Shown here: positions 6,882 to 39,754 of the stretch, in pieces
How the letters are laid out: each line of letters opens with the position of its first letter
Numbering within the stretch: position 1 is the stretch's first letter
Assembly (NCBI GenBank): GCA_965220175.1
Contig: OZ244814.1
Span: 2,439,045 to 2,503,044 of the forward strand
Reading direction: 5' to 3'
Length of the DNA stretch: 64,000 nt
From: Chloroflexota bacterium
Lineage (GTDB): Bacteria; Chloroflexota; UBA11872; VXOZ01
Notes under the pieces: generated by a model
The model's input: the letters and a program-made list of their open reading frames with translations, nothing else
Databases searched by the model: none
Told to the model about the DNA's origin: nothing
Program-made: the position numbers and the translations under genes

Positions 6882-8666
6882 CTAGTCCTTGGGTTGGCGC
6901 AGTGCCAGGTGGACCTCTTCGAGCTGCGGCTCGCCAACCGGCGACGGTGCCTGCGTCATGAGGTCTACCGCCTGTTGGTTCTTGGGAAAGGCGATAGTCT
7001 CGCGGATGCTCTCGGCATCCGCGAAAATGGCGATCGTCCGATCAAGGCCCATGGCGATGCCGCCGTGCGGGGGCACGCCATAGGTGAACGCCTCGAGCAT
7101 GTGTCCGATTTGCTCGTCGATCTGCTCCTTGGTATAGCCCATAGTCAGCCAGATTTGCTCGAGCAAGTCACGCTTGTGCGCACGGACGCTGCCGCCGCCG
7201 ATCTCCCAGCCGTTGCACACCAAGTCATATTGCAGGGAGCGGGCGCTGCCCGGATCGGACGTGAGCAGGTGTTCGTCTTCCGGGAACGGCCCACAAAACG
7301 GGTTATGCACAAAGCTCCAACGGCTTTCGTCTTCATCCCACTCGAAGAGCGGGAAATCCACGAGCCAACAGAAGGCCAACGTGTCTGGATCACGGAGACC
7401 CAGCCGATCGCCAATCTCAAGGCGCAAGCGGGAGAGCACCGCGTTGGTAACGTCCGGTTGATCGGCCACGATCAACACAAGGTCGCCTGCTTGCGCTGAG
7501 AGCGCTTGTGCAATGCGCAGCGCCGTCTCCTCGCCGAGATGCTGCAGCACAGGTGAGCGCAGTCCATCGTCGTCAATGGCAATACTGACGAGCCCTTTGC
7601 CACCCAATGAGCGGACAAGCGTGGTAAACTCATCAACCTGCTTGCGTGAGTAGTGCGCGCACCCAGGGGCCAAGACGGCCTTGACGGACCCGCCCTTGGC
7701 AATCACGTCTTTGAAGACACGGAAATCCGAAACCTGTGCCAGGTTGGAAACGTCGACCAACTCCAGGCCAAAGCGCAAATCCGGCGTATCACAGCCGTAC
7801 TTCTCCATAGCCTCCGCAAAGGGTATGCGCGGAATGGGCCGAGAGAGGACGGACTTGTCACTCAGCGTGTCGGCAAGCTCCAGGTAGAGCCGCTCAATCA
7901 CGCCCATGACATCGTCTCTTTCCACGAACGACATCTCTACGTCAAGCTGCGTGAACTCGGGTTGGCGGTCGGCGCGCGGGTCTTCGTCACGAAAACAGCG
8001 CGCTATTTGGAAATAGCGGTCCATGCCGGAGACCATGAGCAGTTGCTTGAGCTGCTGGGGCGACTGCGGCAACGCGTAGAACCTGCCTGGATGCACGCGA
8101 CTGGGCACCAAATAGTCGCGGGCGCCTTCCGGAGTGCTCTTGAGGAGGATGGGCGTCTCAATCTCCCAAAAACCATCCGCATCCATGAAGTCACGGATGG
8201 CCTTTATCAGCCGGTGCCGCAGCTCCATCTTTCGTTGCATATCCACGCGGCGCAGGTCGAGATACCTATACCGCAAGCGGATGGCCTCATCCACCTCCAA
8301 CGCTGGATTGTTCAAGTCAAATGGCGGTGTCTGTGTTGCGGAGAGTACCTGAATGTCTGATACGTGCACTTCGATATCGCCGGTGGGCAAGTTGGCATTG
8401 CGCGTACCTTCCGGCCGCATTTGCACGGTGCCGGAGAGACTCAGCACGAATTCGTTGCGGACCTGCGCCACTGCCGTCTGCACATCTGCCGAGGCCTGCG
8501 GGTCTATGACAACCTGAGTAATGCCGTAGCGATCACGGACATCGATAAAGACGACGCCGCCATGGTCGCGGCGCCGGTGTACCCACCCGTTTAGTGTGAC
8601 GGCTTCCGCGACGTGTTCTTTCCGCAACGCGCCACACGTGTGGGTGCGTTTCCATTGTCTGCTCAC
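6882..8666 (-). CDS. aspS: Aspartate--tRNA ligase
   Basis: 594 aa with an N-terminal OB fold and class II aaRS motifs (FRDEDPRADRQPEFTQLDVEMSF; GGIAMGLDR). GTG start with an AGGAGCA RBS. Confidence 0.95.
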   Translation of the reverse strand: MSRQWKRTHTCGALRKEHVAEAVTLNGWVHRRRDHGGVVFIDVRDRYGITQVVIDPQASADVQTAVAQVRNEFVLSLSGTVQMRPEGTRNANLPTGDIEVHVSDIQVLSATQTPPFDLNNPALEVDEAIRLRYRYLDLRRVDMQRKMELRHRLIKAIRDFMDADGFWEIETPILLKSTPEGARDYLVPSRVHPGRFYALPQSPQQLKQLLMVSGMDRYFQIARCFRDEDPRADRQPEFTQLDVEMSFVERDDVMGVIERLYLELADTLSDKSVLSRPIPRIPFAEAMEKYGCDTPDLRFGLELVDVSNLAQVSDFRVFKDVIAKGGSVKAVLAPGCAHYSRKQVDEFTTLVRSLGGKGLVSIAIDDDGLRSPVLQHLGEETALRIAQALSAQAGDLVLIVADQPDVTNAVLSRLRLEIGDRLGLRDPDTLAFCWLVDFPLFEWDEDESRWSFVHNPFCGPFPEDEHLLTSDPGSARSLQYDLVCNGWEIGGGSVRAHKRDLLEQIWLTMGYTKEQIDEQIGHMLEAFTYGVPPHGGIAMGLDRTIAIFADAESIRETIAFPKNQQAVDLMTQAPSPVGEPQLEEVHLALRQPKD

Positions 8667-9002
8667 AAGAGTGTGCTCCTAGGAGTGATGGGGAAGTTGC
8701 CAGATGAAGCGGCAACCATTGAGAATCAATAGAGTCAACTGGTTCGCCTAACCGACCTACCTGAGAATAGGAATCTCGCCGGCACGACCTTCATTCTCGA
8801 TCTCACCGGATAGATGACGGTCCGATCTGTCGCAAGGGATCTGCGCCGGTTGAGACGTTGGTCAAGCGAAAGTGCCCGGTGGAAAGACCGGAAGTGCATT
8901 ACTGCCACTGCCCCGGTAGCGAGCGCTACAGGGCAAGATGATAGCAGCCTTTCTTTCACGTCTCATGTGGGCACCATGTGAAGGGTATGGCAAAGTAACT
9001 CT

Positions 9003-11492
9003 CTATATTACGGCAGCTTCCGCTGGTACGTTGTTCGCGGAACGCCGCTCGGCTGCGGTGAAATGCAGCCGTTCTTCCTGCAATTCTACCGTTACGGTGT
9101 AGTTTTCGGCAAGCGTCCCATCCAACAGCATCTTAGCAAGCACATTCTCAATCTCTCGCTGCACCAGCCTGCGCATGGGTCTCGCTCCGTAGTCATGGTC
9201 GTAGCCGTGCTCTACCAGCCAGGCCTTTGCCGCAGGAGTGACCTGAAGCGTGACATCACGCTCTTCCAAGCGCTCCCGGACTTCTGAGAGCATGCGTTCG
9301 ACGACGTCCTGCAACTGCAGTTTGCTCAAGTAATGGAAGACGACGATCTCATCAATGCGATTGAGGAATTCGGGTCGGAATGTCTGCCGCAACTCTTTGT
9401 GCAGCGTTGCCTTCAAGGACTCGTAGTCCTCCCGTTTAGCCTCAGTGCCGTCCGGCTGAAAACCCAGCATGCCGTTGGAATTCAGCACATTGGTCCCGAC
9501 GTTTGATGTCATGATGATGACCGTATTGCGGAAATCGACAACATGCCCGTGGCCGTCAGTCAGGCGCCCGTCTTCCATGACTTGAAGGAGAGTATTGAAT
9601 ACGTCAGTATGCGCCTTTTCGATTTCGTCGAACAGAATCACGCGGTAGGGCCGCCGGCGCACGGCTTCCGTCAACTGTCCGCCTTCTTCAAAGCCAACGT
9701 AGCCGGGCGGCGCGCCGATGAGACGGCTCACGGTGTGGCGCTCCCGGTATTCGGACATGTCAATGCGTACCAAGGCGTCTTCATCGTCGAACATGAACTC
9801 CGCTAAGGCTCGCGCCAGTTCGGTCTTCCCCACACCGGTAGGGCCCACAAAGAGAAAGCTGCCAATCGGCCGCTTGGGATTGGCCAGTCCGGAGCGCGAG
9901 CGCCGTATCGCCTCGGAAGCCGCCACAATGGCTTCTTCCTGGCTTACGATACGCTTGTGGAGTTCAACTTCCATCTGCAGCAGCTTGTCAGCTTCTTCCT
10001 GGAAGAGCTGCGCCACCGGAATGCCGGTCCATTTTGCAAGTACCTCGGCGACGTCTCTGGCGTCAACCTCATCACGGATTTCCTGGCTGCCTAGCCACTC
10101 ATTGCGCGCGGACTCATATTCTTCCTGCAGCCGCAAGTGCTCGGTGCGGGAATTGGCTGCGCTTTCGTAGTCCCGCTCTTGCCAGGCGGCTTCTTCCTTG
10201 CGCTCACACTCCTTGAGCCGTTTTTCAAGCGCTTTGATTTCGTCCGGCATGCTGAAGATCTCCATGCGCACCTTCGCTGCCGCTTCATCGATGAGATCTA
10301 TCGCTTTGTCCGGCAGGTAGCGCTCGGTAAGGTAGCGGTGGGACAACTTTGCCGCCGCAGTCAGGGCGCTATCGTGAATGGTCAGCCGGTGATGCTCTTC
10401 GTATTTGTCCCGCAGCCCCTGCAAAATCGCGATCGTGTCCTCCAGGGACGGTTCATCGACGTATACCGGCTGAAACCGGCGTTCAAGGGCAGAGTCCTTT
10501 TCGATATACCGGCGATATTCGTCGAGTGTCGTGGCGCCGATGACCTGCAATTCGCCCCGCGCCAGCGCGGGCTTGAGGATGTTGGCGGCATCGATGGCCC
10601 CTTCAGCGCCGCCCGCACCAACGACGGTGTGGAGTTCGTCGATAAAGAGAATAACCTCGCGCTTGGCTTTCTGCACCTCTTCTACGACGCCCTTGAGACG
10701 CTCTTCAAATTCACCGCGAAACTTGGCCCCCGCAAGCAGCGCGGCCATGTCCAGTGCGATGACGCGCTTCTCGCGCACTTGCTCCGGCACGTCTCCACTC
10801 GTGACGCGCTGCGCGAGACCTTCGACAATTGCAGTCTTGCCTACGCCTGGTTCGCCCATGAGAACAGGATTGTTCTTCGTGCGCCGTGTGAGGATCTGCA
10901 TCAGTCGGAGGATCTCTTCGTCGCGCCCTATGACAGGGTCGAGCTGTCCATTGCGTGCCAACTGCGTGAGATCGATGCCGAATCTTTCTAGCATGCGGTA
11001 CTTCGATTCCGCTTCCGGATCGGTGACGCGATGGGTACCGCGCACTTTTTCCAGCGCCTGATAGATCTTCTCGCGATCGACGCCGGATTCCCGCAGAATC
11101 TGGTAAGCTTCGCTATCCTCGGCCTCGGAGATTGCAATCAAGAGATGTTCGGTGCCAACATATTCATCCTTCAGGCGACCCGCCTCTCTTTCAGCCGTCT
11201 CAAGTACCCGCTTGGCCTGCGGCGTCAAGTAGTATTGTGCCTGCCCGCTCTGGCCGAACGAGATATTCGGACGTGGCTGCAGAGAACTCTCGAGTTGTCG
11301 TTCTAACTCCATTGCATCTACGTTGAGGATGCTCAGCATTTGTGGCACCAGACCGTCACTCTGCTGAAGCAGCGCCAACAGTATATGTTCTGTGTCCAAC
11401 TGATTGTGGTTATGCTGAAGCATGAGCTCCTGGGCTTTGCCCAGTGCCTCTTGTGCTTTAGTCGTGAATCGGTCATTCCACGCCATCGTCAT
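9003..11492 (-). CDS. clpB: ATP-dependent chaperone ClpB (two AAA+ modules with coiled-coil M-domain)
   Basis: Walker A motifs GEPGVGKT and GPTGVGKT are present, along with a long coiled-coil insertion and an N-terminal repeat domain. The ORF is open back to 11555, but the conserved N-terminus ([15 protein letters not shown]) and a GAGGA RBS favour a start at 11492. Confidence 0.93.
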
Positions 11493-11617
11493 TCGTCCTC
11501 GTAATTCGCTCTCTTCGTCGGGACTGGCCGCCATCGCCGCCCTTTGGCTCTCCATGCCTTTTGCATGTCCGAAGCGGTGGTGGTGCGCAAGCCGATTGAC
11601 TCTCGGCTCACTAAGAC

Positions 11618-11980
11618 CTAGTAGTTGCGCGTCACACGCTGCAGCAAGCCTTTGAGCCGGGCAATTTCCGTTTCGTACTGTTCCCGCTGAGCGGTGAGCT
11701 TCTGTTCCATTTCCTCTTGGAGCCTCTCCATGCGCTCGGTAAGATTTAGAATCACTTCCACACCGGCGAGATTGACGCCAAGATCGTTTACGAGTCGCTG
11801 GATCTGCTCCATGCGCTCCAGGTCGGCGTGTGAATAGAGGCGCACATTGCCTTTGGAACGACGCGGCTTTACCAAGCCTAGTCGTTCGTAGTGCCGCAGC
11901 GTCTGGGGATGAACGCGCAACACCTCGGCCACAACGCCAATCGCATAGAACGGCCCTTCGCCTTCAAAGCGTATATTCAT
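11618..11980 (-). CDS. hspR: MerR-family heat-shock repressor HspR
   Basis: 120 aa with an N-terminal MerR HTH (YAIGVVAEVLRVHPQTLRHYERLGLV) and a coiled-coil C-terminus. It sits immediately after dnaJ and before clpB, as in actinobacterial dnaK operons. Confidence 0.85.
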   Translation of the reverse strand: MNIRFEGEGPFYAIGVVAEVLRVHPQTLRHYERLGLVKPRRSKGNVRLYSHADLERMEQIQRLVNDLGVNLAGVEVILNLTERMERLQEEMEQKLTAQREQYETEIARLKGLLQRVTRNY

Positions 11981-12032
11981 GGTATTTCACTATCTCCCCA
12001 GTGAGGCTTTGGGTTGTCCCTCGCCGCGTGTG

Positions 12033-13046
12033 CTATGCAGTGACAGGACTCTCTTTGCGCAATTGCGCTAGTTCTGCGAAAAGCTTCTTCTCACGAGGCG
12101 TCAGTCCTTTCGGCAAGCGGACTTGCACGCGCACAAATAAACCGCCGCGTTCGCCGCCCTTAAGCCTCGGCATGCCCTGGCCGGCGAGCCTGAAGACCTG
12201 TCCATTTTGCGTTTCGGCAGGGATGCGCATCATGACGCTTTTGCCGTCCGGCGTCGGTACCGGGACTTCCGCGCCCAAGACGGCGTCCACCAGCTCTACT
12301 TGCACGTCCACGTGTAAGTCGTCGGACTTCAATTCATACTGCGAATCAGGCGCGATCTTTACAATCAGATAGAGGTTGCCGCGCTGCCCATCTCTCCCGG
12401 GATGCCCTTCCCCCGCGACGCGAATGCGCGATCCCTCACGCACGCCGGCTGGAATCTTCACGTCTAGCCGGCGCTGCCGCGTCTGGGCGCCACTGCCGCG
12501 ACAAACGGTGCACACCATGCTCTCGATGCGTCCCGTTCCAACGCATGCGGGACATTGACCTGGAACCTGCAGATTGAATGAGCGGCGAGTCCCTGCATAC
12601 GCCTCAGCCAGAGAGACTTCGAACTCCTGTTCTAAGTCTCTGCCCTGTTGCTCGCCAGGCTGCTGCATTCGCCCAAAGAGCGTCTCAAAGAAGTCGGAGA
12701 ATCCGCCGGAACTTCCTTTGCCGCGTCCAAGTCCGTCGAAGTCGATGCCACCAAGGCCACCGATATCAAACGGGAAGCCGCCACCCGCGCCAGTGCGCGC
12801 GTGAGTCTGCCAAGAGCGCCCGGACTGGTGAGCAGCGCGCACTTGATCGTAGCGCGACCGCTTCTTGTCATCCCGGAGTGCCTCGTATGCCTCGTTTATC
12901 TCCTTGAAGCGCTCTTCAGCGCTAGCGTCACCGGGGTTGACGTCCGGGTGATACTTGCGAGCGAGCCTCCGGTACGTCTCTTTGATCTCTTTGGAGGATG
13001 ACTTGGGACTAACGCCCAATACCTTGTAGTAGTCCTTGAACTCCAT
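12033..13046 (-). CDS. dnaJ: Molecular chaperone DnaJ
   Basis: J-domain with the HPD motif (YHPDVNP), a G/F-rich linker and four CxxCxG zinc-finger repeats. The ORF extends to 13067, but the conserved start MEFKDYYKVLGV is at 13046. Confidence 0.9.
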   Translation of the reverse strand: MEFKDYYKVLGVSPKSSSKEIKETYRRLARKYHPDVNPGDASAEERFKEINEAYEALRDDKKRSRYDQVRAAHQSGRSWQTHARTGAGGGFPFDIGGLGGIDFDGLGRGKGSSGGFSDFFETLFGRMQQPGEQQGRDLEQEFEVSLAEAYAGTRRSFNLQVPGQCPACVGTGRIESMVCTVCRGSGAQTRQRRLDVKIPAGVREGSRIRVAGEGHPGRDGQRGNLYLIVKIAPDSQYELKSDDLHVDVQVELVDAVLGAEVPVPTPDGKSVMMRIPAETQNGQVFRLAGQGMPRLKGGERGGLFVRVQVRLPKGLTPREKKLFAELAQLRKESPVTA

Positions 13047-13130
13047 TGCACTCTCTCTACAGCGCAAGGTGTATGGCTAGACCCTTGGCCTGCCGCAGCC
13101 TAGACTATCCAATCTCGCGATTCCATCTCG

Positions 13131-13766
13131 TCAGCGCGGCTGGGCTACACGCACTTTTGCCGGTCTGAGTACCGCGTCGCCAAAGAGATAGCCCGTCTGT
13201 AGCTCGCCGATGACGGTATCGGCATCTACGCCATCTTCCGCCGGCTGCACTTCTACCGCTTCGTGAAAACGCGGATCAAAAGGCTCGCCAACGGCTTCAA
13301 TTCGCTTCACTTCCTGACGCTCCAACGCTTCACGAAGCTGCCACAGCGTCATGCGGACTCCCGTTAGCAGGTCTTCCACGGAATCCGTCTGGTGCTGTTC
13401 CTGATACTCGACAGCCCGTTCCAGATTGTCGATCACGGGCAAGATTGCTTCGAAGGTTTGCCGCTGGCCGTCGCGGACGCCTTCCGTTACAAACTGAACG
13501 GACCGCTTGCGATAGTTCTCCAGGTCGGCTTTGGCACGCAGAAAGCGATCCTTGTACGCATCGGCTTCCTGCGTTGCTGCGGCCAGTTGTTCTTCAATCG
13601 ATGGCTCTGGAGTGGGCTCTGCTTGAGCAGAGTCTTCTTTGCCATCGTCGGCAGACATGTCCTGACAATCACTATCGGCCACGGAATCAGCGGCAATTGC
13701 CTCGGATTCTGCAGCGGTAGGCTCTTCATGTTTCCCTGTCGGTGCCACGAGATTCTTACCTCCCAC
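13131..13766 (-). CDS. grpE: Nucleotide exchange factor GrpE
   Basis: 211 aa with an acidic N-terminus and the GrpE core (YKDRFLRAKADLENYRKR). Confidence 0.85.
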   Translation of the reverse strand: MGGKNLVAPTGKHEEPTAAESEAIAADSVADSDCQDMSADDGKEDSAQAEPTPEPSIEEQLAAATQEADAYKDRFLRAKADLENYRKRSVQFVTEGVRDGQRQTFEAILPVIDNLERAVEYQEQHQTDSVEDLLTGVRMTLWQLREALERQEVKRIEAVGEPFDPRFHEAVEVQPAEDGVDADTVIGELQTGYLFGDAVLRPAKVRVAQPR

Positions 13767-13796
13767 GGAGTGGCATTCCTTGGAGCCACATCTCTT

Positions 13797-15767
13797 TTAG
13801 CGCTTTTCGCTACCGGACGCCTCACTCGTTTCTTCAGCGTCGGTTTCATCTGTGGCACGAAACTCGGCGTCAACAACAGTATCGTCTGTGCCGTCGCCGT
13901 TACTTGCTTGCGGGCCTGCCGCGGCGCCGACCGGTTCGCCGTCTTCGCCCTGCGCCGCACCGGCCTTGGCATACATGGCCTCACCGATCTTCATCGATGC
14001 CTGCTGCACCTCTTCCACCGCGGCGTTGATTTTGGCAGTGTCATCGCCCTTGAGCGCCTCGCGCAAATTCTCGAGAGCGCTCTCGACAGCCGCTCGATCT
14101 TCCTTAGGGATGTCTTCCTCTCCGAGGTCCTTGAGCGTGCGCTCTGTCTGATACAAGAGGGTGTCCGCGCGGTTGCGTGTCTCAACCTCTTCGGCCCGGG
14201 CGCGGTCATCGTCAGCGTGCTCTTCGGCCTCCTTGACCATTTGGTCCACCTGCTCTTTGCTGAGGGTCGTGGACGCGTGAATGGTGACGTTCTGTTCCTT
14301 GCCGCTGCCCAAGTCTTTCGCGGTCACGTTGAGAATGCCGTTGGCGTCGATATCGAATGTTACGTCAACTTGCGGCACACCGCGCGGCGCAGGCGGGATG
14401 CCCTCCAGCCGAAACTGGCCGAGGAGCATGTTGTCCTTCGCCATTGGGCGCTCGCCCTGAAAGACCATGATGTCCACGGCGCTCTGGCCGTCTTGCGCGG
14501 TGGAGAAGATCTCGCTCTTGCGCGTAGGCACCGTGGTATTGCGCTCGATCATCTTGGTAAAGACGCCGCCGAGCGTCTCCACGCCGAGGCTCAATGGCGT
14601 GACGTCGAGCAGGACTACGTCCTGTACTTCGCCGCCTAGCACACCGGCCTGAATGGCTGCGCCTACCGCTACTACCTCGTCCGGATTGACGCCCTGGTGG
14701 GGATCCTTGCCAATGAGCTTCGTAACCAGCTCTTGGATTACCGGCATGCGCGTTGCTCCGCCCACGAGGACCACCTCATCGATGTCATTGGGGCTGAGCC
14801 CGGCGTCATTCAAGGCCTGTTGAAACGGCCTCTTTGTTCGCTCAGTCAAGGTCGCGGTCAAGTCCTCAAATCGTGCGCGCGAGAGTGTGTGAGATAGGTG
14901 CTTGGGACCATTCTGGTCGGCAGTAATGTAAGGCAGGTTGATCTCCGTTTGCACCATGGTGGAGAGCTCAATCTTAGCCTTCTCAGAAGCCTCGATTAGG
15001 CGCTGCAGCGCCTGGCGGTCCTTACGCAGATCGATCCCTTCGTCGCTTTGGAACTGCTCGGCGAGATGGCTTACGATCCTGTCGTCATAGTCGTCTCCGC
15101 CAAGGTACGTATCACCGGCCGTGGACTTGACCTCAAACACCCCGTCTCCAACCTCGAGAATCGACACGTCGAACGTGCCACCCCCAAGGTCCCAGACCAG
15201 GATGGTTTCCGTGGTCTTCTTGTCAAGTCCATACGCCAGGGAAGCCGCAGTCGGCTCATTGATGATGCGCAGCACTTCAAGCCCGGCAATCTGACCGGCA
15301 TTCTTCGTTGCCTGACGCTGACTGTCATTGAAGTAGGCCGGAACCGTAATGACTGCTTGCGTAACCTCTTCGCCCAAGTACTTCTCCGCGTCACTCTTTA
15401 GTTTCTGCAGGATCATCGCGGAAATCTCTTCCGGAGTGAAATCCTTGCCCAGAGCCGGCACGGAAACCCGCGCTTCGCCTTTGGGCCCTTTGCTGATCGA
15501 GTAGGCCACCCGGCGGCCTTCGTCCTGCACCTCATCCTCGCGATGGCCCATGAAGCGCTTGATAGACGAAACCGTATTCTCCGGGTTGAGGACCGCCTGT
15601 CGCCGTGCCAACTGGCCAACCAGGCGCTCTTCGCTCTTGGTGAAGCCGACAACCGAAGGGCAAAGGTCGCCACCCTCCGCTGTTGGAATGACGACAGGAT
15701 CGCCGCCTTCCATCACTGCCACCACAGAATTTGTCGTACCGAGATCAATACCAATAATCTTGCCCAT
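13797..15767 (-). CDS. dnaK: Molecular chaperone DnaK (Hsp70)
   Basis: The sequence starts [18 protein letters not shown]. It has Hsp70 signatures throughout and an acidic C-terminal tail. The GGAGG RBS is embedded in the last codons of lon. Confidence 0.97.
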
Positions 15768-15772
15768 TCGTT

Positions 15773-18250
15773 CTACGCCTCCTCAGCTATGTTTGGACTT
15801 ATCGGTGTGCCAACCGGTGGACCCTCCGGCGTTGGCGCCGGCAGTCGTTGCTTTCTACTCGAGTGTTTCGTCTTGCTATTCCTCCTGGGAGTGACCTTCA
15901 ACAGCGCGGCATCGAGCACCTCATCCATGGTTTCCGCCCAAATGATGTTCAACTCGTCTAGTGCCTCTTTCGGCACATCTTCGAGGCTGTGCTTATTCTT
16001 GCTTGGCAGAACGACGGACCGCACTCCGGCGCGGTGGGCCGCCAGCAGCTTTTCCTTGAGCCCGCTGACTGGCAAGACGCGGCCACGCAAAGTTACCTCA
16101 CCGGTCATAGCGACGTCCTTGCTTACCGGACGCTGGGTGAAAATCGAGACAATCGAGGTGGCCAGCGCTACACCGGCGGACGGACCTTCTTTCGGCACGG
16201 CGCCGGCAGGAACGTGTACGTGAAGATCATTTCCCTCGATCTCGTCTGCCGCAATATCGAAAGACCGTGCTTTCGCGCGCGCAAAGGAGAGTGCCGTTAC
16301 CGCAGACTCTTTCATGACTTCGCCAAGCTGACCCGTCAGGATGAGATTGCCCTTACCTTTCATGAGAGCCGCCTCTACCGTGCTTATCTCACCCCCGGCG
16401 GCAGTCCACGCCAAGCCGGTGACCACACCGACCTCATCCTTGCGTTTGTCGTGTTTGGTGTTGAGCTTTTCCGGGCCCAACAATTCCTGGACGCGCCGCG
16501 GGCCGATGCGCACTGATTTCTGTTCTCCCGCTGCCACCAAGCGCGCGACCTTGCGGTCGATTGTGGCAATCTGCCGCTCCAGGTTACGCACGCCGGCCTC
16601 TGCCGTGTAGCCGCGGACCACTTTCCGCAGACCCTCATCCGTCATCTTGCACTGTGTGCGCGTGAGTCCATGCTGCTTGAGTTGCCGCGGCACCAAGTAG
16701 TCCCGTGCGATGTGGAGCTTCTCTTCCTCCGTGTAGCCGGAGATATTGATCACTTCCATGCGGTCACGCAGGGCTGGGGGGATAGTCTCTATCAGATTCC
16801 CCGTCGCGATGAAGAGCACCTTCGAAAGGTCATAGGGAACTTCAAGGTAGTGATCGGAGAAGCTGAAGTTCTGTTCCGGGTCGAGCACTTCAAGCATGGC
16901 GCTGGAAGGATCGCCACGGAAGTCAAAGCCGAGCTTGTCGATTTCATCGAGTACGAAGACCGGATTGACCACACCTCCCTGGCGCATACCTTGGATGATC
17001 CTGCCGGGCAGCGCGCCGATGTACGTGCGGCGATGTCCTCTTATTTCGCCTTCATCCCGTACGCCGCCCAAGCTGATGCGGACGAACTTTCGGTCCAACG
17101 CCCGCGCAATCGAACGCCCAAGTGACGTCTTGCCAACACCGGGAGGACCGATGAGACAGAGGATGGGAGTGCGCGCATGCTTGGCAAGGCTGCGCACTGC
17201 CAGATATTCAAGAATGCGGTCCTTGACCTTATTGAGTCCGTAGTGGTCCTGGTCGAGGACGGTCTTGACATGGGTTATGTCAATTTCCTCTTCGGATCCG
17301 TTCGCCCAAGGCAAGCCCAGCAGCCACTCCAAATAGGTGCGCACAATGCCGACTTCGGGCGACGCCGAAGGCATGTTTCCCAAGCGTCCTGCCTCGTGAC
17401 GTGCCTTGTCTTTCACGTCGTCGGGCATGGCGGACTCTTCGATCGCTTTCTTGATTTCCTCGATCTCCGCCAATTGCGGGTTAGTCTCTCCCAGCTCGCG
17501 GTGAATTGCTTTGAGCTGTTCCCGAAGATAGTACTCCCGCTGCGCTTTTTCCATGCCCTGCTGGATCTCGCCCTGGATCCGCGCCTTGACCTCGGAGATT
17601 TGCAGTTGCCGCGCCATGATGCGGTAGACGCGCTGCAAGCGTTCTACGGGGTCGACGATATTGAGCAATGTGCGCCGTTCATCAAGCGTTAGCTCCGGCG
17701 CGTAGCCAAAGAGGTCGGCGAGACGACCGGGATCGTCCATGCCCCGCGCCACAGCCACCGCATCGCGCGGTACCTGGGGTTCTTTTTCGACATACGCTTC
17801 GATTTGGTTGATTACGCTGCGCACGAGCGCTTCCGTTTCCAGGCTGGTCTCGGCCACCTCTTCTACAGCTTCCACTTCCGCGATCAGATGCTTCTTCTTC
17901 CAAATGCTGTGCAACAGACCCCGCTGCTGCCCTTGGAATAGCGCCTGGTGCTTGCCATCGGGAAGGCGAATGAGTTGTCCCACCCCTGCAATGGTGCCCA
18001 CAGTGCCCGCATGTTCTCGTTTTGGCCGCTGCAGGTTGAACTCCGAGTCCGGCGTCAGGAGCAAGACCTTGTGGTCGCCCTCCGTTGCCGCCGATACCGC
18101 ACGGAATGCGGCTTCGTCTTCCAAACGCAAGGGAACCGTCATATATGGAAAAACGACGGAGTCCGTGAGCACGACGACCGGCAGGCGCAAGAGTTCCTGA
18201 TCAGTTGAAGTCTCGTTAGTGCTTGTTTCCTTTTCCGGCTGTTCTGCCAT
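15773..18250 (-). CDS. lon: ATP-dependent Lon protease (LonA: N-domain, AAA+, S16 peptidase) with a basic/Pro-rich C-terminal tail
   Basis: Walker [10 protein letters not shown] and the catalytic Ser context [17 protein letters not shown] are present. Length is 825 aa. The stop codon lies 5 nt before the dnaK ATG. Confidence 0.95.
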
Positions 18251-18296
18251 GCAAATGCGTCCTCATTCACTCCCGTAGGAAGGTTTCGCTACAAAT

Positions 18297-18325
18297 ATAG
18301 TACAGGTTGAGTGTCTTCGTGTCAA
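18297..18325 (-). promoter_or_regulatory. Sigma70-like promoter upstream of lon (minus-strand reading: TTGACA, 17-nt spacer, TACTAT)
   Basis: A perfect -35 hexamer and a TAnnnT -10 with 17-nt spacing sit about 45 nt upstream of the lon ATG. A GGGAG/GAGGA RBS follows. Confidence 0.4.
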
Positions 18326-18326
18326 C
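18306..18326. promoter_or_regulatory. HAIR-like inverted repeat (gTTGAGT-N7-tgTCAAc), candidate HspR operator overlapping the lon promoter -35 and spacer
   Basis: Plus strand reads GTTGAGTGTCTTCGTGTCAAC. The minus strand reads GTTGACA-cgaagac-ACTCAAC, against the HAIR consensus CTTGAGT-N7-ACTCAAG. Spacing is correct and the arms match 6/7 and 4/7. Confidence 0.35.
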
Positions 18327-18664
18327 TAAACTACACTGCGCTACATAGTATTATCCTACACATTCGTATGAGATAGGGCAAGCTTGCTGCTGCCGCACGA
18401 AGCTGCAGATACTCTAACCGCAATAGAACACCAGCCACGCACTCGAGACGTCGCGACTTACCACCGCAATCGAATTCAAGGGACCGCCGCCGTGTTGCGA
18501 CTAACGCCACCGTGTGCGCGGCGACAGGCTCCTCCCTTAAAATGTCAAGCCGCCCGGGCGTACGAGCGGCTTGACATCAGGAAAAATGGAGGAAGGATCG
18601 GAGCGTATATGTGTGGGTTACATATACGTACATTCAGTTTTGGGTGAGCACCGGTATTGGTGCT

Positions 18665-20254
18665 TCAGTCGAAGAGCAACGCCTTCCGGCGCAGAATTGT
18701 GTCGCCTAGGAGTCCAAGTTGCACTTCATATCGCGTTCCGGCGTGCTGTGGATGGTATTCGAAACGCGCACGTTGGAAATACTGTACGGTCTTGCCGTCT
18801 TCGAAGACCTCCTGCGTGATGGGATAACCGAAGATGTAAATGCCACCGTTCTCCCGGAAATACTTAAGGAACGCAAAGTGAACGGAATGACCGGTTTCCG
18901 GAAAATACTGCTGTGATTCGGTCGTCGGCATTGGCGCAACTCTCGTAGCTGGTGGCTCGCCATTGCGGATTGCATTGCCAAGCAAGGTAAGTTGAACCTC
19001 GTAGGGAGTGCCTGCGTGTTGCGGGTGATACTCGAAACGTGCACGCTGAAAGTACTGCACGATCTTGCCATCTTCCGTCATCTCTTCGGTACGTGGATAC
19101 CCGAAGATATCGATACCACCGTTAGCCTCAAAGAACTCTCGAAAGCCGCCAAAGACATTGTGACCCGTTTGATTGAAATACAGCACGCCCGGACTGTTGA
19201 TTCTGGGCACCGGATCGGTGGGCAATCGATCGCGCAGGCCGATACTCACCCACAAGTCGTCGCCTAGGTTTTGGCCGCCCGGTCCTTGCATGCTCCAGAC
19301 GCTCATACATTCCCCGCATACGGTAGGCGCGCGCAGCCTCAGACTCACGGCGCCGGTCTGCCCCGGCATGAGGTAGGGCAGGGGTACGCTTACAGGTCCG
19401 CCAAACTGGTTTCTACCTTTGAATACCAGTCGGAAGTCGCCGTTCCACGGCACCCCGCCGGTGTTCATGACTTTCCACGTCTTTGTAAAACTGCTGCCTG
19501 CCAGCACCGCTGTTCCGTCCGGGATCGTCAGATCCGCGATATAGCGTCCGTCCGGCTCCGTGAAGTACGAGTGAATTCCCTTGTAGAGCGAGGCCGCCAC
19601 TCTCTGCTGGTAGCTAGGGTCATTGAGCTTTATTGCTTCCGCGTAGTTGGAGAGCGTGCCAATCTCTGCGAGTACCGCCGGCAGGTTTATCTTACCGAGA
19701 ATGTAATAGGGTGCCGATTGTACTCCACGATCATCTGCGCGTGTTATCTCCTGAAGGCTATCCCTGATTCTGCGTGCGAGGTTCCTGCTTTGGGCTATGA
19801 GTTCCGGCGGTCGATTGTGGGAGTAGAGGTAACCGTCTTCAGGGCCGAAGAAGACAACCACTCCCGTACGAGAGGCATCTTCCAAGGAGTCTGCGTGAAT
19901 GGATACGAATATGTCCCCATTCGCTTGGTTCGCGATCTGCAGCCGGGCATCCAAGTCCGATCTGCGCCGATTAGCACTGGTCCCCAGGGTCGTGTCGTCA
20001 ACGCGCGTATAGACCGTGGTAGCTCCGGCCGACTCCAAGAGCGCCTTGAGCTTGAGAGCAATCTGGATATTGACGTCTTTTTCTTTGAAGCCATTTACTA
20101 CGGCTCCCGGGTCTTCGCCGCCGTGTCCAGGGTCAATTACTATGACTCTGCCGGCAAGAGAACCCGCCGCCTGTACAAGGCTGCTCGGGAGTACTAACGC
20201 GGCAAAGAGGAAGACAAAAAGAGTGGAGAAAATTGAGACGCGAATAGGCCGCAT
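18665..20254 (-). CDS. N-acetylmuramoyl-L-alanine amidase (Amidase_3) with signal peptide/TM, central Ig-like region and two C-terminal LGFP-like repeats
   Basis: An N-terminal hydrophobic segment is followed by the Amidase_3 core (VIVIDPGHGGEDPGA ... SIHADS). Two roughly 75-aa tandem repeats follow (FGYPxTxExxEDGKxVQYFQRARFEYHPQHAGTxYEVQLxLLG). Confidence 0.85.
   Translation of the reverse strand: MRPIRVSIFSTLFVFLFAALVLPSSLVQAAGSLAGRVIVIDPGHGGEDPGAVVNGFKEKDVNIQIALKLKALLESAGATTVYTRVDDTTLGTSANRRRSDLDARLQIANQANGDIFVSIHADSLEDASRTGVVVFFGPEDGYLYSHNRPPELIAQSRNLARRIRDSLQEITRADDRGVQSAPYYILGKINLPAVLAEIGTLSNYAEAIKLNDPSYQQRVAASLYKGIHSYFTEPDGRYIADLTIPDGTAVLAGSSFTKTWKVMNTGGVPWNGDFRLVFKGRNQFGGPVSVPLPYLMPGQTGAVSLRLRAPTVCGECMSVWSMQGPGGQNLGDDLWVSIGLRDRLPTDPVPRINSPGVLYFNQTGHNVFGGFREFFEANGGIDIFGYPRTEEMTEDGKIVQYFQRARFEYHPQHAGTPYEVQLTLLGNAIRNGEPPATRVAPMPTTESQQYFPETGHSVHFAFLKYFRENGGIYIFGYPITQEVFEDGKTVQYFQRARFEYHPQHAGTRYEVQLGLLGDTILRRKALLFD
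18680..19230 (-). repeat. Intragenic tandem duplication encoding two LGFP-like repeat units of the amidase (approximate bounds)
   Basis: Two protein segments are about 70% identical over roughly 75 aa each; the DNA copies lie at approximately 18680-18900 and 18960-19230. Confidence 0.6.
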
Positions 20255-39215: not shown

Positions 39216-39754
39216 AAGATACGCTAGCGCTGCCCGCCGCCGGGCAGAAGACGGGTGCTTCAGGCTTCGTGCTTGCGTCCGCCGATCAAATTCTGAATTG
39301 GGGTAGAGCAAACGCCCTGTGGCCGATGACGTTCGGCCTTGCGTGTTGCGCAATCGAGATGATGGCGGTCTGGGCGTCGCACTATGATGCGGACCGCTTT
39401 GGCATGGCGTTCCGGGCGACTCCCCGACAATGCGACGTCATGATTGTGGCGGGCACGGTCACGAAGAAAATGGCGCCGATCATACGCAACCTCTGGGAAC
39501 AGATGGCACGTCCGTGCTGGGTGATTGCCCACGGCAATTGCGCTACCTGCGGCGGGCCGTATCGTTCCTATAGCGTGCTGCAAGGGGTGGACCTCGCGGT
39601 TCCTGTAGACATTTACGTACCGGGGTGTCCGCCGCGGCCCGAGGCGCTGCTTGAAGGTCTCATGTTGTTGCAGCAGAAGATCAAACAGGGTGAGTGGGCC
39701 GGTTCGGAAGAGGCGCTGCTCACCGCACGCGCGGCTGCTGCCTCAGAGGAGTAG
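39182..39754 (+). CDS. nuoB: NADH-quinone oxidoreductase subunit B (N2 cluster subunit); start may instead be the TTG at 39203, which has an AGGAG RBS
   Basis: Motifs [18 protein letters not shown] and GCPPRPE. Confidence 0.9.

Follow-up and report, generated by a model that had tools for sequence, protein, structure and literature searches.

In Streptomyces coelicolor, the repressor HspR controls its own synthesis together with lon, clpB and the dnaK operon (PMC2687793). A gene cluster in a 64-kb stretch of DNA from an uncultured Chloroflexota bacterium (contig OZ244814.1; hereafter the window) raises the question of whether such functions can be gathered behind a single HspR-controlled promoter, as a first-pass annotation of this DNA had proposed for the protease, the Hsp70 system and a disaggregase. 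Comparative genomics upholds the cluster and its promoter–operator but not the disaggregase. We consider it probable that lon-dnaK-grpE-dnaJ-hspR-clpC is a conserved protein-quality-control operon under an HspR-controlled promoter, the last gene of which encodes a ClpC-type ATPase.

The cluster region (9003-18326) contains six consecutive open reading frames (ORFs) on the minus strand, which were identified from the ORF list with Pfam and NCBIfam models as lon-dnaK-grpE-dnaJ-hspR-clpC:

15773-18250, minus strand: lon, encoding LonA of 825 aa (Pfam LON_substr_bdg, AAA, Lon_lid and Lon_C)
13797-15767, minus strand: dnaK, 656 aa (HSP70, 859 bits; NF001413, 985 bits against a cut-off of 648)
13131-13766, minus strand: grpE, 211 aa, with a GTG start (Pfam GrpE, 154 bits)
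12033-13046, minus strand: dnaJ, 337 aa, with its ATG at 13046 (J-domain, G/F region, two CxxCxGxG repeats and DnaJ_C)
11618-11980, minus strand: hspR, 120 aa, encoding a winged-helix repressor of the MerR type that has a coiled coil at its C terminus (Pfam MerR_1 and MerR_2)
9003-11486, minus strand: clpC, 827 aa, with the conserved start MAWNDRF at 11486, a Hsp100/Clp ATPase of the ClpC type

With starts backed by sequence context and by relatives, the intergenic gaps from lon to clpC measure 5, 30, 84, 52 and 131 nt, the last becoming 125 nt if an ATG two codons further upstream is used; the six same-strand genes with short gaps that were initially described are thus borne out by the ORF calls. 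LonA scores above its equivalog cut-off (TIGR00763, 912 bits against 608), and its N-terminal substrate domain, AAA+ module and S16 protease domain were all found. HspR passes the equivalog model NF047375 (HeatShock_HspR) with 111 bits against a cut-off of 105. DnaJ falls under its own equivalog cut-off (TIGR02349, 304 against 377 bits). The only CxxCxGxG repeats in this DnaJ are CPACVGTG and CTVCRGSG, which suffice for one zinc centre and not for two.

The last gene had been called clpB. We rejected this identity: the protein reaches 1118 bits with TIGR03346, against a cut-off of 1232, and the match falls into two stretches split at the middle domain (M-domain). In ClpB, the middle domain is a long coiled coil of about 120 aa, and there is no ClpP-docking loop. 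The top match of the window protein in the PDB is Staphylococcus aureus ClpC, which aligns in a single collinear stretch (residues 6-824 against ClpC 5-818, 908 bits), such that the layout of N-domain, D1, short M-domain and D2 follows that of solved ClpC throughout. The best solved relatives are the S. aureus and Bacillus subtilis ClpC proteins, both collinear, whereas Thermus thermophilus and Escherichia coli ClpB align in two pieces. Likewise, a 142-aa segment spanning the M-domain matches ClpC 389-531 end to end, whereas its match to ClpB is partial, with about 50 residues skipped. The D2 loop carries the ClpP-docking tripeptide LGF (at about aa 674-676), which aligns with the 'FAGF' loop of ClpC and is kept in all relatives examined. 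The only genuine ClpB found after hspR, in the related locus L017, lacks LGF and has the long middle spacing, with a PDKAID-TGIP distance of 160 aa compared with 95 aa in the window protein. Because the M-domain is short, the LGF loop is present and the ClpB cut-off is missed, the disaggregase part of the interpretation falls; judged by its sequence, the last gene encodes a ClpC-type Hsp100/Clp ATPase and not the ClpB disaggregase. This corrects an annotation trap, as ClpC-type proteins are readily called ClpB. No true clpB was found elsewhere in the window, where the remaining ORFs of this size (about 850 aa) resemble NuoG and FtsX, and neither clpP nor an adaptor gene was present among the ten large window ORFs scanned, the search having been confined to the window.

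How old is this arrangement? Our comparison set consisted of 80 loci from an HspR protein scan, with one genome per species, and the window proteins were compared with these loci by tblastn. All but one of the loci (79 of 80) come from Chloroflexota-type metagenome-assembled genomes (MAGs), the other being labelled Armatimonadetes. The nearest relative, MAG contig OZ244803.1, encodes HspR, Lon and DnaK that are 98%, 99% and 99% identical to those of the window, and shares the flanking genes. The full lon-dnaK-grpE-dnaJ-hspR-clp order is found in 14 close relatives, with a fifteenth on a truncated contig, and also in about 32 distant loci, in which identity to the window proteins falls to about 51% for Lon and about 57% for the Clp ATPase. 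Variant arrangements include lon-grpE-dnaJ-hspR, lon-dnaK-grpE-dnaJ-hspR without a Clp gene, and dnaK-grpE-dnaJ-hspR; dnaJ-hspR stands alone in MAGs labelled Anaerolineae and Caldilineaceae, and the adjacency of these two genes, which are 52 nt apart in the window, is kept in nearly all 80 loci. In one distant locus (L018), successive gaps of about 10, 6, 9 and 1 nt are followed by a 4-nt ATGA overlap between hspR and clpC. Conserved order and tight junctions of this kind are, at the sequence level, the signature of an old polycistronic operon with translational coupling, in which the window clade has widened some spacers secondarily. Moreover, our scan of the gaps between genes of the window cluster turned up no promoter-like (at least 9/12) or terminator-like site on the operon strand. 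From the shared strand, the kept order, the junctions in coupling range and the lack of internal signals, we infer that the six genes form a single polycistronic operon read as one transcript.

The junction between lon and dnaK is tight in both close and distant relatives. As the first-pass annotation had noticed, the dnaK Shine–Dalgarno (SD) sequence, GAGGAGG, lies inside the end of lon, in the codons for the terminal Lon residues (...AEEA-stop), and dnaK starts 5 nt past the lon stop; because the SD overlaps them, the last Lon residues are constrained. In the close clade, this gap is 3-5 nt with the SD within Lon codons, and it measures 12-18 nt in about 30 distant loci, where the lon stop TAG forms part of the dnaK SD (TAGGAGG). 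Wide gaps, of 62 and 132 nt, occur in two loci only. The basic, Pro-rich C-terminal tail of Lon that had also been pointed out is real and clade-specific, being kept in the 14 close relatives that hold lon and replaced in distant relatives by a different, non-basic tail.

We then asked what might control an operon of this kind. Ahead of lon, two overlapping elements were delineated:

18297-18325, minus strand: promoter P1, TTGACA-17-TACTAT, a 10/12 sigma-70-like match
18307-18325, minus strand: HAIR-like operator, TTGACA-cgaagac-ACTCAA, with a 7-nt spacer, overlapping P1

P1, which was predicted at the same position from the start, is the best match in 8400-18800 and would place about 40 nt of leader, including the lon SD GAGGAC, ahead of the lon ATG. 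The left half-site of the operator is the -35 hexamer itself, and the right half-site, ACTCAA, is a perfect half-site of the HspR-associated inverted repeat (HAIR) situated inside the promoter spacer. The HAIR consensus is CTTGAGT-N7-ACTCAAG, and the HAIR arms are essential for HspR binding in Helicobacter pylori (PMC6102357). Compared with the Streptomyces consensus, the operator agrees at 10/14 positions, with four mismatches: the right arm is perfect and the left arm reads TTGACA. Consequently, a strict HAIR search of the window, allowing three or fewer mismatches, did not recover the operator; its sole hit, at 39338, is at chance level, as chance alone gives 1.8 hits per window. Taken alone, the resemblance of the operator to HAIR proves nothing, and its significance rests on conservation.

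That conservation is extensive. A search of both strands of 1.34 Mb of related loci gave 60 matches to the motif TTGAYA-N7-RCTCAA, against a mean of 0.1 in 30 shuffles. All 60 are on the operon strand, and 59 of them precede the leading recognised gene of the hspR operon by at most 800 nt; the remaining one, in L051, lies 2.6 kb ahead of it. Put the other way round, the motif is present within this distance in 59 of the 73 sequences that cover the region, whether the operon-leading gene behind it is lon, dnaK or dnaJ, and seven of the remaining loci have a version with one or two mismatches at the same position. Of the annotated HAIR-like repeat over the promoter, therefore, the spacing, the promoter overlap and the conservation stand, and the canonical match is limited to 10/14. 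These counts also bear on the idea that the resemblance arose by chance, and that we are looking at an ordinary strong promoter before adjacent housekeeping genes with no dedicated operator. The background of 1.8 chance hits per window at three or fewer mismatches, when the operator needs four, would suit that idea, but 60 matches against 0.1 expected, at the same position and in the same orientation in genomes with proteins only about 50% identical, effectively refute it, and we give it almost no weight.

A motif-anchored alignment across about 60 loci yields a common TTGACA-N7-RCTCAA-N4-TAnnnT, which corresponds to the -35, a 17-nt spacer containing the HAIR half-site, and the -10. The operator arms do not change from locus to locus, in contrast to the freely varying seven bases at the centre, and such a pattern is what a dimeric regulator usually leaves in sequence comparisons. 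In L013 and L015, the -10 of P1 has decayed and TTGATA-N7-ACTCAA is kept, so the operator is not conserved merely as a promoter. A position weight matrix (PWM) built on the motif gave the operator as its only hit in the 64-kb window (score 35). The PWM scan found no further operators in the window or in the 1.34 Mb of related loci, including before clpC and before detached Clp genes, and the extra hits in related loci were only degenerate copies at the same operon-upstream position. The promoter–operator position is thus both conserved and unique.

Does the motif belong to HspR? RCTCAA might instead be the site of a different regulator or reflect an unusual promoter architecture (a spacer or discriminator element, say, or an alternative sigma factor), with HspR acting elsewhere. 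Such an explanation would accommodate the HAIR specificity of only one arm, the failure of the strict consensus and the lack of a second site from which an HspR regulon could be defined. It does less well with the finding that the motif tracks the hspR operon whichever gene leads it, with a half-site identical to a HAIR arm at the exact N7 spacing, with retention of the motif where the -10 has decayed, and with its lack of resemblance to either the controlling inverted repeat of chaperone expression (CIRCE) or the CtsR direct-repeat box; we regard it as improbable. CIRCE and the CtsR box were themselves considered as the identity of the motif and were rejected for misfits of sequence and symmetry when the alignment was inspected against their consensus sequences.

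The alignment of relatives also exposed a second block, in place of the single promoter-like element originally claimed:

18353-18381, minus strand: promoter-like block P2, TTGCCC-17-TAGGAT, an 8/12 match that is below the scan threshold

P2 lies about 45 nt upstream of the -35 of P1 and is conserved in all 14 close relatives covering the region, in several of which it reads TTGCnn-17-TATAAT or TAGAAT; it is intact in L013 and L015, in which the -10 of P1 has decayed, so tandem promoters may feed the operon. If active, P2 would start a transcript about 20 nt upstream of the operator, which would place the operator at about +20 to +40.

The junction at which the operon might be divided is the last one:

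11487-11617, minus strand: hspR-clpC spacer, 131 nt, with a 9-bp hairpin (11611-11587) that lacks a U-run

Here clpC could be read mainly from an unrecognised promoter of its own or be insulated by the hairpin after the hspR stop, in which case the conserved cluster would comprise more than one transcription unit in the window clade, with lon-dnaK, and perhaps the genes as far as hspR, still controlled by HspR and clpC partly or wholly independent. Such a division would fit the poorly alignable spacer of 90-300 nt in close relatives, its tolerance of repeat insertions in L003 and L015, the hairpin itself, and the loci in which the Clp gene lies kilobases away from hspR (L062, L075 and L078) or is absent (L028 and L037). 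Nevertheless, the spacer contains neither a promoter-like match of at least 9/12 nor an operator-like match by PWM, the hairpin has no U-run and the spacer folds no more stably than shuffles (z = -0.67), and the gene order is kept over deep divergence, with the ATGA overlap in distant relatives. On balance, we think a separate clpC unit, the chief alternative, unlikely. The weaker HAIR half-site that had been placed at 11588-11608 is not supported: the site has a sub-threshold PWM score, is not conserved and sits in the local hairpin.

Two further observations concern this spacer. In L003 (about 10400-10640) and L015 (about 10400-10560), repeated GC-rich palindromic units, GTAGCGCGGGGGCTTGTCCCCCGC... 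and CCGGCTTTCGCCGGAATGACAG..., have been inserted; they look like elements of the repetitive extragenic palindrome or miniature inverted-repeat transposable element (REP/MITE) type and stretch the spacer to 200-300 nt. In addition, most relatives have a short hairpin just upstream of the clpC SD (window 11500-11545; L002, L004, L005, L008, L012 and L013) that differs in sequence but is similar in position, for example CGCTTTC...GAAAGCG or CGCTCCC...GGGAAGCG, the window version being weak. This hairpin may serve as a stem for processing or stabilisation, or else control translation.

Returning to a single operon under HspR control, several points weigh against it. The operator is four mismatches away from canonical HAIR, and its left arm could be kept purely as a -35, which would leave one 6-nt half-site as the only signal specific to the regulator. 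There is no second HAIR-like site in the window or in the 1.3 Mb of flanks, and so no wider regulon that ties the motif to HspR. The HspR score barely exceeds the NF047375 cut-off. Finally, with gaps that have widened to 84 and 131 nt in the window clade and a hairpin in the spacer, partial termination or a weak separate clpC promoter is possible.

Given that DnaK, HspR and DNA form a ternary co-repressor complex (PMC4063869), the features described above suggest the following circuit. Transcription would proceed from the housekeeping-type promoter TTGACA-17-TACTAT, with the second promoter about 45 nt upstream perhaps contributing. An HspR dimer is predicted to bind the half-degenerate HAIR, TTGACA-N7-ACTCAA, with its left arm in the -35 and its right arm in the promoter spacer, where it would occlude RNA polymerase at P1 and act as a roadblock to elongation from P2. 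By analogy with Streptomyces, DnaK would serve as co-repressor, and unfolded proteins arising under heat or other proteotoxic stress would titrate it away, leading to de-repression. Lon, DnaK/GrpE/DnaJ, HspR and ClpC would then rise together from a common transcript, until newly made DnaK and HspR restored repression and closed a negative feedback loop. The lon-dnaK pair and, ancestrally, the hspR-clpC pair would be translationally coupled.

How does this layout relate to known systems? It shares with the HspR/HAIR regulon of Streptomyces and Mycobacterium the dnaK-grpE-dnaJ-hspR core order with a distal gene for a MerR-type HspR, the TTGA...TCAA arms set 11 nt apart (N7 spacer) over a promoter, and the placing of the protease Lon and a Hsp100 ATPase under the same regulator (PMC2687793, PMC6102357). 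In that regulon, however, lon and clpB are separate HspR targets with HAIR promoters of their own, whereas in the window lon and a Hsp100 gene are physically fused into one operon; the Hsp100 is ClpB rather than ClpC-type, the phylum is another one, and the window has a single asymmetric operator with a perfect -35 TTGACA as its left arm in place of TTGAGT (10/14). The departure from the actinobacterial layout that was first noted is therefore correct in that lon stands in front and a Hsp100 gene behind, but the comparison crosses phyla and does not describe a rearrangement within Actinobacteria.

The operon of Thermus thermophilus reportedly has the order dnaK-grpE-dnaJ-dafA-clpB (Motohashi et al.). 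It resembles the window in running from dnaK-grpE-dnaJ through a small protein to a Hsp100, with DafA at the position of hspR, and differs from it in having no lon in front and a true ClpB as its Hsp100. DafA is a DnaK–DnaJ assembly factor and no known repressor, and the Thermus DnaJ is without CxxCxGxG repeats, compared with two in the window protein (PMC3727329). DafA (PDB 9dvi_S) matches residues 27-83 of HspR with E = 3.7e-4 and a 35-sequence HspR profile with E = 1.2e-5. The HspR profile also matched E. coli CbpM (E = 1.2e-3), a link between CbpM and HspR that is already published (PMC4063869). The profile match and the shared dnaJ-X-clp position suggest that DafA may be a decayed HspR; in the searchable literature, we found no paper tying DafA to HspR or MerR.

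In Bacillus and other Firmicutes, the repressor CtsR is co-transcribed with clpC in a ctsR-mcsA-mcsB-clpC operon and autoregulated at the operon promoter. The window would share this feedback design of repressor plus unfoldase, but the two differ in the regulator (CtsR against a MerR-type HspR) and in the operator (a direct heptad repeat against an inverted repeat); the window has no mcsA or mcsB, and the Firmicutes operon has no chaperone or lon genes. A J-protein gene followed by a gene for a MerR-fold protein of the HspR/CbpM type is also found in cbpA-hspR of Helicobacter and Campylobacter and in cbpA-cbpM of E. coli (PMC4063869, PMC6102357), but these are units of two or three genes without lon, dnaK or clp, and CbpM no longer binds DNA.

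In the searchable literature, in which HspR in Chloroflexi was also covered, we found no published account of the six-gene lon-dnaK-hspR-clpC arrangement. The layout of operon and operator is new, and the regulatory scheme, HspR acting through HAIR, is already known, so this is not a new kind of system. Work on the HspR/HAIR circuit has so far concerned Actinobacteria, Epsilonproteobacteria and Deinococcus; the findings add uncultured Chloroflexota, with what would be a maximally compact version in which a single promoter–operator serves the repressor, the Hsp70 machine and two AAA+ protease systems. The 19-bp operator, in which a perfect half-site is fused to a -35, also offers a model for a MerR-type repressor on an asymmetric site. 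Practical use lies mainly in annotation and regulon prediction in Chloroflexota MAGs; no new kind of biology is opened.

If HspR control holds, Lon, the Hsp70 system, the repressor and a ClpP-partner unfoldase would be hard-wired to one operator that doubles as the -35 box, and translational coupling at lon-dnaK and hspR-clpC would set component stoichiometry. HspR would be made alongside DnaK, its likely co-repressor, and alongside two AAA+ proteases that might degrade it, giving a self-contained proteostasis feedback module. On this interpretation, the three separate HspR units of Actinobacteria would be replaced by one polycistron across a broad group of uncultured, apparently largely host-associated and marine Chloroflexota, and Thermus would share the ancestral layout, with DafA as a decayed HspR. 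We offer this whole interpretation tentatively and lean slightly against it.

The cluster is flanked on the same strand by a gene for an N-acetylmuramoyl-L-alanine amidase upstream and by aspS downstream. In the amidase (18665-20254), Amidase_3 is joined to an Ig-like domain of the Pfam family N_BRCA1_IG (75 bits), which is not a usual partner in a cell-wall amidase. On the other side, the interval between clpC and aspS (8667-9002) is 336 nt of non-coding DNA with several stems and a promoter-like site at 8966-8938 (with TG), and neither a T-box nor another Rfam family was found in this interval ahead of aspS. More generally, Rfam leader, thermometer, T-box and small RNA families gave no match at gathering thresholds over the whole window or in E-value mode over 8500-18800.

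After the amidase stop and ahead of the lon promoters, a segment of about 90 nt (18536-18628, minus strand) is near-invariant in all close relatives covering the region, with divergent flanks. Its parts are a 9-bp hairpin with four covarying pairs, a single-stranded CU-rich AUCCUUCCUCCAUUUUUCCUG that is anti-SD-like, and a GC-rich hairpin of 15 bp with UUUUAA after it. The segment has no Rfam match, and the window carries a compensatory A-U to U-A swap in it. It could be a small RNA, either independent or derived from a 3′ untranslated region, or an elaborate terminator of the amidase gene.

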